Assembly (NCBI GenBank): GCA_003344405.1
Contig: NOWV01000159.1
Location: 62,001 to 126,000, forward strand
Source: Trichoplax sp. H2
Taxonomy: Eukaryota
DNA: 64,000 nucleotides
Direction: 5' to 3'
The notes below the pieces were generated by a model that saw nothing but the letters and a program-made list of their open reading frames with translations, searched no databases and had not been told where the DNA came from. The position numbers and the translations under genes were made by a program. Positions 2,478 through 63,065 of the stretch are shown here, in pieces (position 1 is the first letter of the stretch; each line of letters opens with the position of its first letter).

Positions 2478-3003
2478 ACAGTACAGTATAATACTGTACT
2501 GTACTTTGCAGATCTCAGATCTGCAGTACAGTACAGTACAGTACATTGCAGATTTCAGATCTACAGTATACTGTCCTGTACTACAGACGTCAGTCCTAAC
2601 TACAGTAATGCAAGTCACGTCGTAATACCAATCTATAGTCTATAATAGACTCTATACTATGCCGCCGACCCGCCGTTATACAGTATGACAAATGGAAGCA
2701 AGATCAATTTTTTCGAGGATTGAGTTTTTTACTATACTGTACTGTACATTGTACTGTACAAGTAATTACTGTACTTATTACAAGCGAAGTACTGTACAGT
2801 ATCGTACGTACAGTACTGAACGCCCCCTCCCCCACAAGTACAGTACAGTACTGTACTGTACACTGTACAGTAGAGTTAAGATAAAAACATTTTTACCCTT
2901 AACTCTATGGTTATACAGTACAGTACAGTACGGTACTGTACAGTACTTGTACAGTATAAAGAAAGTATCCTATTATACTGTACTGTACTGTACTGTACGT
3001 GTG
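2478..3003. repeat. ACAGT/ACTGT pentamer array upstream of TSG101
   Basis: Dense TACTG/CAGTA runs in alternating orientation with interspersed GC-rich boxes (GCCGCCGACCCGCCG 2661, CGCCCCCTCCCCC 2821); ends ~140 bp before the TSG101 ATG. Confidence 0.9.
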
Positions 3004-3139
3004 TAGACCTGAGAAGGCAAAAAAACTTTGGACAAAAATTAATTAAATAAAAATATCAGTACAGCATAAATAGGGTTCAGTGTAAATTACGAGATCGAAA
3101 CCAAAGTTCGCAATCTTCTTTCAACGGTACTGTGCTACT

Positions 3140-5173
3140 ATGTTACCGATTTCGGAAAACAACTTCTACATTGTAAATGATACGGCAACAACAATATATT
3201 GACTGTATTTTACTGTGCTTGGGTTTTAGTATCGGTACAGTGATGATGCGATAAAAGATACACTCACCGTTTTAAGGACCTTTCAAAACTTTAGATTGGA
3301 TTTGTCAAAATATAGTAAGTTCTAAACTATTTCATACTCAATACAGGCAGGAGTGTTAGGAATATAAAACTGTTTCGAGATGCGTATTGTGCTTCTAATC
3401 AGGTTAATTAAATATTATTTAGCGTATAACGATGGTAGAGAAAGTAGCTTGTTCTGCATGGATGGAACCATTCCAGTTGTCTATAAAGGTATACTACGTA
3501 ATTTTTCATTAATAAAAGCGCATAGTAAAAGTGTCCATAATTTCATACTGTTTTCGTAGTATTCTACTGTAATGTTTTGTAGACATAAGTATGCGTATAC
3601 ATATTACTTATTACCATGGTATTATATAATATATATATTTCTAGTAAAGTGTACATACGTGATCTTTGCTTCAGGAACGACGTATAACATTCCTATTTGC
3701 ATCTACTTGGAAAAAAATTACCCTCATCAGAGTCCTATTTGCTTTGTTCGCCCCACAAACTACATGATCCTCAAACAAACGAAAATCGTGAATGCTGACG
3801 GAAAAGTTAGCATTTCGTACTTATTAGATTGGAGATATGTAAGTATCAAGACAAATTTCGTTCTACTTTATAAAATGGAAATATGTTCTTAACCGCTATT
3901 AATAAAAACTTTCTATTTCAGCCTCAGTCAGACCTAACTACGTTTCTGCAAGTATTATGCCTACAGTTCGCAGACGAGATGCCTGTTTATAGCAAGAAGG
4001 CCACGTCTTATCCTTCACAAACATCTCAACCTGGTTACTCGTCCTCTCTACAGTCTTCCTATCCCCGTTACAGCAATCCAAGACAACCTTATCCTCCACC
4101 GAATGTCAACCCCAATGCCAATCTTCCCTATCCTCCAACCAGCTCTTATGGTATGCCACAGCCTGGCAACCCAAGTCCTTATCCACCAGCTTCTAGTACT
4201 GCTTCCATTTCATATCCTTCATTTCCCTCGCCTCGACTCGGAGATATTAATCCCTCAAATGAACAAGTAATGTATCAGTCACTGTTAACATCTGTTGAAG
4301 AGAAATTAAAGAGGCGCTTAAACGAAGCTTTAGAAGAAGGCAAGACAGAAATCGAATCTCAAATGCATATAGAAAATGAATTAAAGAAAAGTTCCACTAT
4401 TCTAGAAGACAAATTAAAGCGGTTAAAGGAAGAAGAAGTGTGACGAGAACCTCTTACTTATGTATGATCTGGGTGATTTTTTTAAGACAGTTTTAAATTC
4501 TGTTTTTAGGATCAGGTTAGGGCTGAAATCGATACTATGTCCACGAAATTGAGTGAACTGCATCAAATTGAGTCTCGTGTCGGCACAGACCCATCGAAAC
4601 TTAACATTGATGATGCTATTATTACGACTGCCCCATTATATACACAGTGAGTTACTCTTAAATGCTGAAAATATATTTATTTCCTACTATTAGAATCATT
4701 TTTCAGGCAGTACTGTATTAGGAAGATCAGTTTAATTCTGATCTCATTTTACGTGTATGTACTCATATACCAGAAATTCAGTAAGTTTTAACTCATTAGC
4801 CAAGTTTCACAAATTAATTTCATATTTATTTCACAAGAATTCTTAATCTGCATACCGAGGAATGTGCTATAGAAGACACAATTTATTATCTCGGGGAAGC
4901 TCTGAGAAGGGAGGTTATCGATCTAGAAATATTTCTTAAAGTAAGTTTTTGGAAGGGTCACTGGATTGTATCCGCTTTAGCCAATAAAAGACCCAGCAAA
5001 ATTCTAATTGTAATTTTGTAATTACTATTATACACGTACATGCAGGAATTTCATTATTATATTGCAAACTAAATGATATGTTTATTACTTAGCATGTTAG
5101 GTCTTTATCGAGGAGGCAGTTCATGCTAAAGGCTCTAATTCGAAAGGCTAGAGCAACTGCTGGACTTCCTTAG
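3140..5173 (+). CDS. TSG101: Tumor susceptibility gene 101 (ESCRT-I Vps23), 8 exons
   Basis: Exons ~3140-3172, 3230-3314, 3423-3488, 3675-3838, 3922-4437, 4510-4646, 4838-4940, 5093-5173. UEV domain (GTIPVVYKGTTYNIPICIYL), Pro-rich region, coiled coil and steadiness box (AIEDTIYYLGEALRREVIDLEIFLKHVRSLSRRQF). First exon is the least certain. Confidence 0.95.
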
Positions 5174-5488
5174 CTGGTAAATTACTTCAAGAAATGTTAC
5201 ATTGATCATACGGGTTATTTGCTTGAGTATTTAATTTGAACAAGAGTCCAATAATTAGAACAAATAGTACCGACTAGAAAGCGGGTTTTGCAACGCTCAT
5301 TCTTTAGACAGTTGTATGCTTTCTATTTTCATAGTTACTTTTTTATTTGACGTTATACAATTTTCTGTTAATTAATCTATCAGCATATTGCAGGTCTAAA
5401 GTTAAAAAATCATCATGTTTCGACGTCCGTAACATAATCTTGATAAATATATTCTAGGTGTAATGATACACTATGTTAAACGTTAATA

Positions 5489-61600: not shown

Positions 61601-62339
61601 CTAGAACCTTGATACGGTGAAAGTGTACAATCAATTTGCTGTGGTACGTATACAATAAAGGAAAGCGTACGGGTAAACTATCAAAAATAAGCTATCTTAC
61701 CGTATTTCGAGATTACGTATTGATGCTGTTAACTCTCATAGCTCTTTAAATCCCCCCAAATATTTTTGTATTAAAAATTGTGCCCATTGTACACATATAC
61801 TGTTGTATACTGTACACTACTGTACAGTAATATACTATCGTAGGTTAAGTTCATATTACAGTGCTGTTATGAATTAGTAGTTTTCTACTAGGAAGGTACT
61901 ACTACCAGGGAGTACTAAAGAAGATACTACTGTCATAAAAAATTGCTTGCATCAATCAGATTGCCGTGACTGTTCCGCACCAGTAAATTAATGGAGAACT
62001 TACTGTAATGCAGCAATAGCAATGTGTGTAAGGTGTAGACTACACGCGAAGTAAAACCTAACGAGAGAGTTATCTAATCTTATGAATTACTTCTTCTTGA
62101 CTTTCTGACTTATTATAAATTACTGTATTTATCGGTTTCACTTGCGTCTACTCGTGCATATTAACCTTTAATAAGAGTGTACAATTTTACTGTCCTAGCG
62201 CAAAGAGGAACCGAAAAAGAAAATTGTGCAGCATACTGGTGATGTACTGGTGTTACACTGTACCTTTAATTTCGACCTCATCTTCGTTAGTGGCGTTATC
62301 TAGGGAATCCAACAACCTATGGTCGATATTGTGTTCCAT
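55699..62339 (-). CDS. TPCN2: Two-pore channel 2-like endolysosomal cation channel, multi-exon
   Basis: Exon 1 [12 protein letters not shown] (62339-62264, contains a dileucine). [31 protein letters not shown], pore filters [12 protein letters not shown] and [15 protein letters not shown]6 [29 protein letters not shown], and tail [13 protein letters not shown]...PRDI*. Confidence 0.9.
60371..60486. repeat. Long intronic inverted repeat (~43-bp arms, ~30-nt loop) in TPC2
   Basis: ATGTACAATAGTATCTGGCATTTTGTAATTATATTTTTACTAC versus reverse complement of the right arm ATGTACATTAGTCTCCGGCATTTTGTAATTATATTTTACTAC. Confidence 0.85.
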
Positions 62340-62483
62340 ATTTGTGATGAACTGGATTGTAAAAGTTTTACTGCAAAATTATTCACATTTGTATTTCAAG
62401 TAAGATTATTGTTTTAATTTTACTTTAGTTTATTTTATTTTTTATTTTCCCATCTTTCGAGATTTACTGGAATGGCATAACAT

Positions 62484-63065
62484 CAGTATTCAGTATACAG
62501 TACTGTACAGTACAGTACAGTACAGTGCAGACTTTTCGATCTTTTTTATTATTAAATTATTATTATTACAGTATGATCCGATGACTGCGCTGGTGCTACA
62601 GTACCGTGTTAAATGTACTGTACTGTACTGTACAAACTCGCCACGCCTGAGAACCTCTAATTTGTATGGTGGTCTCTAGTGTCCTGTACACTAGAGACCC
62701 TTAGTACAGTACTGTACAGTACAGTATACTGTAGTACATTACGTATCGGAATTTCAGTGCAGTAAACCGTTCTGTAAAAACGTGTCACTGGATCAGGTTC
62801 CGGTAAATTTCGCGGTTTAATCTTAAACTGTACTAGTTAGTCTAGAAATAACCGGACCCGCTGTCCAGTAAAAAGGCCAATTTTTTAACTTTTCTCCGGT
62901 ATATTCTGAAGCCGGGGTTGGTTGAGGAGTCCCTGCAGCTTTCGTGATATCCGTGTTGATACGGCTTGGCCTACTGTACTGTACAGTACAATTCGAGCAA
63001 GTGAGCATACTGTAGTGAGTAGATACTGTACAATACTGTACACTGTACAGGACAGTACTGTACAT
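62484..63065. repeat. ACAGT/ACTGT arrays upstream of TPC2
   Basis: Blocks at ~62490-62525, 62615-62635, 62700-62740 and 62970-63065, starting ~150 bp upstream of the ATG at 62339, with GC-richer spacers. Confidence 0.85.

Follow-up and report, generated by a model that had tools for sequence, protein, structure and literature searches.

A 64-kb stretch of the genome of Trichoplax sp. H2 (contig NOWV01000159.1 of assembly GCA_003344405.1, positions 62,001 to 126,000 of the forward strand; the whole of this stretch is called the window below) raises the question of why the 5' flanks of several of its genes are occupied by dense arrays of the pentamer ACAGT and its reverse complement ACTGT, and what these arrays might do there. 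A first-pass annotation, made from the sequence alone, had described them as palindromic arrays forming a candidate repeat-based promoter code. The reading preferred here, with a probability of roughly 0.4, is that the arrays would act as a strand-blind platform of GTAC cores at housekeeping promoters, read by a putative factor.

Part of the answer is already in print. According to the main text of Wang et al. (2010; PMC2871265), pentanucleotides are the commonest class of microsatellite in Trichoplax (7233 of 11697) and ACAGT accounts for 78% of the pentanucleotide repeats, with 54% of all ACAGT copies placed no more than 1 kb, and 85% no more than 5 kb, upstream of a gene; it was proposed there as a possible transcription-factor site. 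The repeat and its link with gene starts have therefore been published since 2010, and the core claim is already known; the first-pass annotation had itself mentioned a reported gene-proximal enrichment of ACAGT in Trichoplax. The terms "palindrom", "orientation", "strand" and "reverse complement" do not occur in the main text of that paper. Besides it, a literature search (supplements not covered) found no paper treating ACAGT as a placozoan repeat, and a search with longer repeat strings together with Trichoplax gave no match. In the text of PMC12817080, a neural network that was trained on Micro-C maps of Trichoplax is described as having picked the "repeating motifs ACGG and ACAGT", of which ACGG is linked there, separately from ACAGT, to the transposon motif that Kim et al. 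(2025) reported. The text of the latter paper (PMC12221973) reports promoter hubs and a Mutator terminal inverted repeat (Mutator-TIR) motif at housekeeping promoters, with Mutator insertions and promoter hubs at about one third of promoters; that text does not refer to microsatellites, and the letters of the motif are given in its figures only.

The enrichment of the pentamer in the window is real. Counted on both strands, ACAGT/ACTGT was found 439 times, compared with a mean of 152.5 (sd 11.2, largest 181) in 100 dinucleotide-preserving shuffles. When a cluster was defined as at least 5 units with gaps of no more than 60 bp, 15 clusters were identified, 13 of them inside five regions (2035-2996, 9688-9918, 14097-15208, 26517-27474 and 62497-63061). 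Together the five account for 3828 bp and 205 units, a density of 53.6/kb; the remaining 60172 bp have 234 units (3.9/kb, where a first-order Markov expectation is 2.1/kb). By the criterion of Wang et al. (perfect ACAGT-class repeats longer than 12 bp), 33 repeats of 13-23 bp occur in the window and 31 of them fall in the same five regions. The G+C content is about 33% throughout. The array blocks and the tracts that adjoin them are as follows.

2035-2121: array block R1a, 7 units, upstream of TSG101
2478-2606: array block R1b, 10 units
2680-2996: array block R1c, 24 units, the last ending about 12 bp before 3008, the leftmost position of the TSG101 RNA contig
3020-3056, plus strand: AT-rich tract after R1c, inside the TSG101 RNA contig
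9648-9677, minus strand: AT-rich tract between R2 and the 5' end of the GRWD1-like gene
9688-9918: array R2, 26 units, between the divergent GRWD1-like (minus) and ABT1-like (plus) genes
14288-14414: array block R3a, 9 units, with sparse units from 14097 adjoining a minus-strand ATG at 14093
14533-14740: array block R3b, 17 units
14876-15208: array block R3c, 27 units, with the tubby ATG (15336) 128 bp further on
15150-15179, plus strand: TTTA-rich tract near the end of R3c
26517-26822: array block R4a, 24 units; the DEP gene has its ATG 158 bp away, at 26359 (minus)
27053-27303: array block R4b, 22 units
27387-27474: array block R4c, 7 units, in the 5' flank of the CRAL_TRIO/RhoGAP gene, with a TTTA tract following at 27420-27446
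62404-62449, minus strand: AT-rich tract between R5 and the ion-channel ATG at 62339
62497-62631: array block R5a, 11 units
62706-62732: array block R5b, 5 units
62973-63061: array block R5c, 9 units; the putative Ost5/TMEM258 ATG at 63212 lies about 150 bp beyond

All five regions are located in gene 5' flanks and four of them lie between divergent genes, namely the GRWD1-like and ABT1-like genes, a minus-strand gene of no assigned family and tubby, the DEP and RhoGAP genes, and the ion-channel and Ost5 genes. The fifth is upstream of TSG101, the left neighbour of which has no Pfam identity. Start codons and array-to-ATG distances were read by eye, which affects several ATGs and the orientation of one gene; on this reading the unit nearest to a putative start codon is 119-291 bp away, in line with the earlier statement that the arrays stop some 100-300 bp before gene starts. 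No array was found in any of the three documented tail-to-tail intervals of the window: 5174-5488 has 1 unit, 54999-55698 has 3, and the 16 units of 21800-24393 (6.2/kb) are scattered, with no tandem copies among them. For this window, the claim that arrays belong to 5' and not to 3' flanks thus stands. Unit density in the large dynein exons is 1.2/kb. Two small clusters that the first-pass annotation had missed lie inside genes, one of 5 units at 46268-46398, partly within a dynein intron (46380-46400), and one at 61799-61862, which falls some 480 bp past the start codon of the ion-channel gene and within that gene. A by-eye check of the cluster strings gave no consistent polarity of units relative to the adjacent gene, and a BLAST search of the pentamer-masked array regions against the window returned no element common to different regions. 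Within two of the divergent spacers, the gaps that separate array blocks contain TATAAAG-like boxes (14470-14477 and 26836-26842), which may be core promoters with arrays on either side.

The unit is better described as the tetramer GTAC followed by one A or T base (GTACW). GTAC occurs 499 times in the window, and the distances between successive copies are dominated by 5 bp (112 pairs), multiples of 5 bp being next; a 7-bp spacing was the second commonest, with ACT and AGT, a reverse-complement pair, 4 times each. Between the cores spaced 5 bp apart the intervening base was T in 63 cases, A in 47, G in 1 and C in 1, so that 110 of the 112 bases were A or T. The core itself is well kept. In 66 triples with the outer cores fixed the middle core was intact in 49, its changes being mostly transitions (G>A 5, C>T 4), and the flanking fifth bases were A or T in 126 of 132. 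Runs are short, the longest having 6 cores and the longest perfect repeat 23 bp.

ACAGT and ACTGT are rotations of GTACA and GTACT, so that a change of orientation amounts to an A/T difference beside a self-complementary core. The repeated orientation changes described earlier do occur, since 94 of 193 neighbouring units within clusters differ, and with 102 plus and 106 minus units the orientation is statistically random. The "palindromic flips" are, however, not a separate signal, being simply the alternation of A and T at the fifth base of GTACW. With cores at a 5-bp pitch and an A or T chosen at random between them, the arrays are strand-blind.

This behaviour was compared with (ACAGT)n elsewhere by scanning public metagenome contigs for seven consecutive GTACW units, which gave at least 109 readable loci. 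Among the 109 loci in the matches listed, neighbouring fifth bases were the same in 1729 cases and switched between A and T in 55 (about 3%), whereas in the window 27 were the same and 19 switched (Fisher p 5.5e-16). In 3-6-core runs inside those 109 loci, 665 were the same and 28 switched; the flip fraction per locus had a median of 0 and exceeded 0.25 in 4 of the 109. The fifth-base variants in the listed loci were mainly G in A-runs and C in T-runs, as transitions would give. Among the matches listed, (ACAGT)n of at least 7 units is widespread in public metagenome contigs and nearly always in one orientation, with four mixed-orientation loci (L088, L047, L014 and L016) resembling Trichoplax.

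Since the listed arrays from elsewhere nearly always keep a single orientation and those of the window are mixed, the peculiarity of Trichoplax is that A and T are scrambled while the cores next to them are well kept. An ordinary microsatellite driven by slippage was considered and rejected, as the long same-orientation runs expected of it are absent (94 flips among 193 neighbours, longest run 6 cores). Slippage copies whole units and would homogenise the fifth base as well, and the combination of pure cores with a scrambled fifth base therefore indicates a constraint on the core. Saturation of the fifth base by point mutation would likewise erode unconstrained cores, which again favours a constraint on GTAC.

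The preferred reading builds on this constraint. It also draws on the position of the arrays, both in the window and in the published genome-wide counts, on the comparison between strains given below and on the choice of ACAGT by the network trained on Micro-C maps, with the transcription data as weak hints. The arrays are copies of the published promoter-proximal (ACAGT)n, which is specific to Trichoplax; they occupy much of the spacer upstream of transcription starts and are placed mostly between divergent, broadly used genes. We infer a dimeric or oligomeric factor that would dock multivalently on the palindromic (W)GTAC(W) core and, once docked, could keep the shared promoter region open and insulated. 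Such a mode of working may be likened to that of the GAGA factor on (GA)n or of BEAF-32 on CGATA clusters. Three other explanations have to be weighed.

The one that survives best, although it is unlikely, regards the arrays as a by-product without function: the repeat would be generated or retained preferentially in open promoter DNA, or be linked to Mutator insertions, and the cores would be kept alike by exchange among thousands of arrays, in either orientation because GTAC is self-complementary. The first 20000 positions of the window were compared with DNA contigs of two runs (with two organism labels) and with two RNA-library runs. DNA word depth was about 36 elsewhere and 5419-21150 in the three main array bins, 8090 and 7588 DNA contigs matched the 20-kb stretch, and single-copy contigs break at the arrays. 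These depths and counts fit thousands of similar arrays genome-wide, and the promoter hubs described in the text of PMC12221973 would bring such arrays together. The block layout also varies among promoters. Three DNA contig pieces over arrays represent two other strains, and the differences between strains in the arrays are indels rather than substitutions: an X1 contig over 2235-2570 has 1 differing letter (at 2454, outside the array) and 10 gap letters, X1 and X3 contigs over 14169-14535 and 14169-14563 have 0 differing and 7 gap letters, and an X3 contig over 14580-14845 has 0 and 19. No substitution fell inside the arrays, and no A/T switch was seen at this small divergence, which means that orientation switching is not a very fast process.

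A link with mobile elements is suggested by one locus. A 37-nt inverted repeat (89%; 1901-1937 and 2238-2271) encloses about 300 bp with the first small array, and a cluster of ACGG at 5-bp spacing (1944-1963) lies within it. The whole looks like a small mobile element and may have a connection with the Mutator-TIR motif that Kim et al. (2025) describe. However, only one of the five array regions has an ACGG cluster, the two ACGG/CCGT clusters of the window compare with 0.87 expected by chance, and the five regions share nothing else once the pentamers are masked. Ordinary (ACAGT)n elsewhere is not scrambled, which would oblige this explanation to invoke a special process, and the restriction to 5' flanks (none of three 3' intervals, and intragenic clusters of only 3-5 units) would need a strong targeting bias.

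An effect intrinsic to the DNA and without any reader is more unlikely still. Flexible TA/CA steps at a 5-bp pitch, or self-complementarity, would in that case position or exclude nucleosomes or extrude hairpins, the latter driven by the negative supercoiling of divergent transcription. The strict 5-bp spacing (112 gaps) would suit such an effect, and in single-strand folding against dinucleotide shuffles all six array blocks had z values of -2.7 to -7.9, compared with -0.7, -1.6 and +0.4 for three tail-to-tail control stretches. However, when only the A/T letters were shuffled the folding energy of 11 blocks was unchanged (summed -451.5 versus -441.2 +- 7.3 kcal/mol, z -1.41; z below -2 in 1 of 11), and an inverted-repeat search of the five regions returned only arms built from the pentamers themselves. 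Self-complementarity follows automatically from a palindromic core, and a 5-bp period presumably carries no 10-bp rotational signal.

The "perfect palindromes" pointed out earlier are therefore expected of any GTACW array, and neither they nor the proposed cruciforms have anything in their favour beyond this. A cruciform-forming element was rejected, no self-pairing beyond unit composition being found (A/T-letter shuffle, summed z -1.41), and a palindrome code has no support. The arrangement of A and T is not tuned for hairpins. The label "promoter code" overstates what is demonstrated.

Other companions of the arrays named in the first-pass annotation fared variously. CG dinucleotides were found at 30.2/kb in arrays and 27.2/kb outside, a ratio of 1.1 that lends nothing to a CpG-island-like mark, and a CpG island was rejected for want of enrichment over the surrounding DNA. 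Matches to a GC-box (1) and to CCGGAA (3) do exist within arrays +-100 bp, but are too few for the described interleaving to be called. The AT/TTTA tract beside arrays, a weaker claim, is borne out at 5 gene-proximal array ends by eye, and TTTATTTA is 3.9-fold enriched (7 matches).

The RNA libraries bear on the last alternative, namely that the arrays are themselves the core promoter, with an initiator-like CAGT core on either strand and dispersed starts both ways. Word depth in array bins was 69-243 in the RNA libraries, about 0.01 of DNA depth, compared with ratios of about 3 for exon bins and 0-0.04 for silent ones; word depth is a poor measure of transcription, which makes this ratio a weak hint, and as a class the arrays appear little transcribed. 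Stretches without RNA cover were not counted as evidence. Spliced TSG101 RNA is represented by one contig (X20, depth 96.7) whose cover includes position 3008; the last unit ends about 12 bp away, at 2996. DNA contigs at the same edge run on to 2923 and 2897; the exon positions of X20 are off from the gene model by about 30 nt, and the claim is limited to coverage of 3008. This is a weak hint that TSG101 transcription starts at the array edge, in which case the AT-rich tract at 3020-3056 would fall inside the 5' untranslated region (UTR). Arrays acting as core promoters are nevertheless improbable, for although the contig end would place that tract within the transcript instead of upstream, a low-depth RNA-library contig (5.3) spans 2307-2821 and the balance of plus and minus units (102 and 106) would suit divergent pairs, RNA per DNA copy in the array bins (about 0.01, by the same weak measure) is at or below that of silent DNA, the last four units beside TSG101 are ACTGT on the plus strand, the "wrong" direction, and the match to the initiator consensus is partial.

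Several considerations weigh against the strand-blind platform itself. The metagenome loci were chosen for 7 perfect cores while the window has a maximum of 6, making them an imperfect reference. G or C at the fifth base (2 of 112 in the window, 91 of 2661 in the listed metagenome loci) is not clearly rarer in the window, so that selection for A or T there is not demonstrated. All figures on position derive from a single 64-kb window, in which the independent regions number five, and the evidence on transcription starts derives from one contig of one run. Array size (231 bp to about 1.1 kb) and layout (1-3 blocks) vary widely among promoters and arrays differ between strains through indels, which together fit a loosely constrained or neutral repeat. 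We know of no binding factor for the repeat.

The genes concerned were identified by Pfam scans of stop-to-stop open reading frames (ORFs), and are listed below.

3140-5170, plus strand: TSG101 gene, ATG 3140 by eye; UEV and Vps23 core (Pfam)
5479-9397, minus strand: GRWD1-like gene, WD40 and CAF1C_H4-bd; ATG 9397 by eye, exon 1 followed by a long intron
10047-10751, plus strand: ABT1-like first exon(s), ATG 10047 by eye; weak RRM match
ATG near 14093, minus strand: gene of no assigned family, by eye
ATG 15336, plus strand: tubby gene, Tub domain, five exons; ATG by eye
ATG 26359, minus strand: DEP-domain gene, weak DEP match; ATG by eye
Downstream of R4c, plus strand: CRAL_TRIO_2 and RhoGAP gene, Pfam matches to both domains
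37019-37032, plus strand: X-box-like palindrome GTTACCATGGCAAC, upstream of the dynein heavy chain gene, which has no array
Downstream of 37019-37032, plus strand: dynein heavy chain gene, AAA_6, E 2e-159
ATG 62339, minus strand: Ion_trans (ion-channel) gene, weak Ion_trans match; ATG by eye
63212-63577, plus strand: Ost5/TMEM258 gene, Pfam Ost5, E 1.7e-6; putative ATG 63212

A TSG101 exon shares 100% identity over 171 aa with TRIADDRAFT_33034, partial [Trichoplax adhaerens], and the splice structures of TSG101, the GRWD1-like gene and the 5' exons of tubby are borne out by RNA contigs. The Ost5/TMEM258 gene was missing from the first gene list; the array region 62497-63061 is common to it and the ion-channel gene. 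The labels "TPC2" and "DEPDC7" given earlier reflect domain matches only and were not confirmed further. Another 100 small ORFs (in 1-1950, 11000-14200, 21800-24560 and 32400-36700) had no credible Pfam match. The interval 35100-36900 was left out of the divergent-spacer count; the neighbours left of 2000 and at 32400-36700 have no Pfam identity.

Some further features of these genes were observed. The 3' ends of TSG101 (plus) and the GRWD1-like gene (minus) overlap at 5093-5592, and in each of two runs one RNA contig carries spliced exons of both. At position 3088 one RNA contig and the DNA contigs of both organism labels have a 19-letter insertion relative to the window, which carries a deletion allele in the TSG101 5' UTR. 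The ABT1-like first exon is covered by a perfect 300-bp direct repeat (9956-10255 and 10352-10651, 396 bp start to start); DNA contigs of two runs start precisely at 10352 and the bin 10006-10672 is at less than half the usual depth, so that the repeat reflects either an artefact of assembly or a duplication that is real and recent. A tubby intron holds a moderately repeated element at about 17413-17666 that is not a pentamer array; DNA word depth there is about 12 times baseline (bin 17343-18009), and single-copy contigs stop at 17413 and resume at 17644-17666.

The dynein gene, the sole ciliary gene of the window, had been set apart earlier as carrying an X-box instead of arrays, and this agrees with what was found. 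In its 5' flank the repeat is present as a trace only (about 36940-36958), and GTTACCATGGCAAC at 37019-37032 has one mismatch to an X-box consensus. With that consensus and up to 3 mismatches, 5 X-box-like matches occur in the window compared with 1.26 expected. A weaker site (2 mismatches to the same consensus) is located at 27686-27699, just past the arrays at the RhoGAP 5' end.

What is new here is the GTACW grammar, the random orientation as compared with ordinary arrays, the lack of palindrome tuning and the hint of a transcript beginning at an array edge. An abundant microsatellite is thereby recast as a defined grammar with a constant GTAC core, a free A/T base and random orientation. 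The flip fraction is a simple statistic for comparing placozoan genomes, and the grammar supplies concrete probes. Passages of PMC10580291 describe placozoan gene regulation as exerted almost wholly from proximal promoters, and a lineage-specific repeat present at thousands of promoters is therefore likely to be central to the organisation of transcription in this very simple animal. It is conceivable, if doubtful, that (GTACW)n is a selected, orientation-blind grammar peculiar to placozoans, which would fill the untranscribed spacer of divergent housekeeping promoters and on which an oligomerising factor would keep these promoters open and help to gather them into the hubs seen by Micro-C. 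If this were true, (GTACW)n would take over the role that CpG islands or GAGA elements play elsewhere.

Among known systems, the (ACAGT)n of Wang et al. (2010) is the closest, being of the same organism, the same pentamer and the same upstream-of-gene bias, with 33 qualifying repeats in the window. The main text of that paper treats it as an ordinary microsatellite, whereas the window has random orientation, a constant GTAC core and runs of no more than 23 bp. The Mutator-TIR loop-anchor motif (PMC12221973) belongs to the same genome, the same housekeeping promoter class and the same gene region, but is listed separately as "ACGG" in the text of PMC12817080, and only one ACGG cluster was found in the five regions. 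CpG islands are similar in that they mark, through base composition, promoters that are broadly expressed and often bidirectional; the arrays differ in having no CpG enrichment. The GAGA factor and CLAMP on (GA)n offer another parallel, (GA)n being a short tandem repeat at Drosophila promoters that is regarded as a multivalent chromatin-opening site. Both repeats are short, tandem and concentrated at promoters, but (GA)n has another sequence, is strand-asymmetric and has a known reader protein, whereas GTACW is strand-blind and its reader is a predicted one. The CGATA clusters of BEAF-32 and the DRE mark head-to-head housekeeping promoters in Drosophila and are linked to insulation; in Trichoplax, ACAGT was among the motifs picked by the network trained on Micro-C maps. 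There too a short motif is clustered in both orientations at divergent housekeeping promoters, although it is a different motif in few copies, whereas the Trichoplax arrays run to tens of tandem units.

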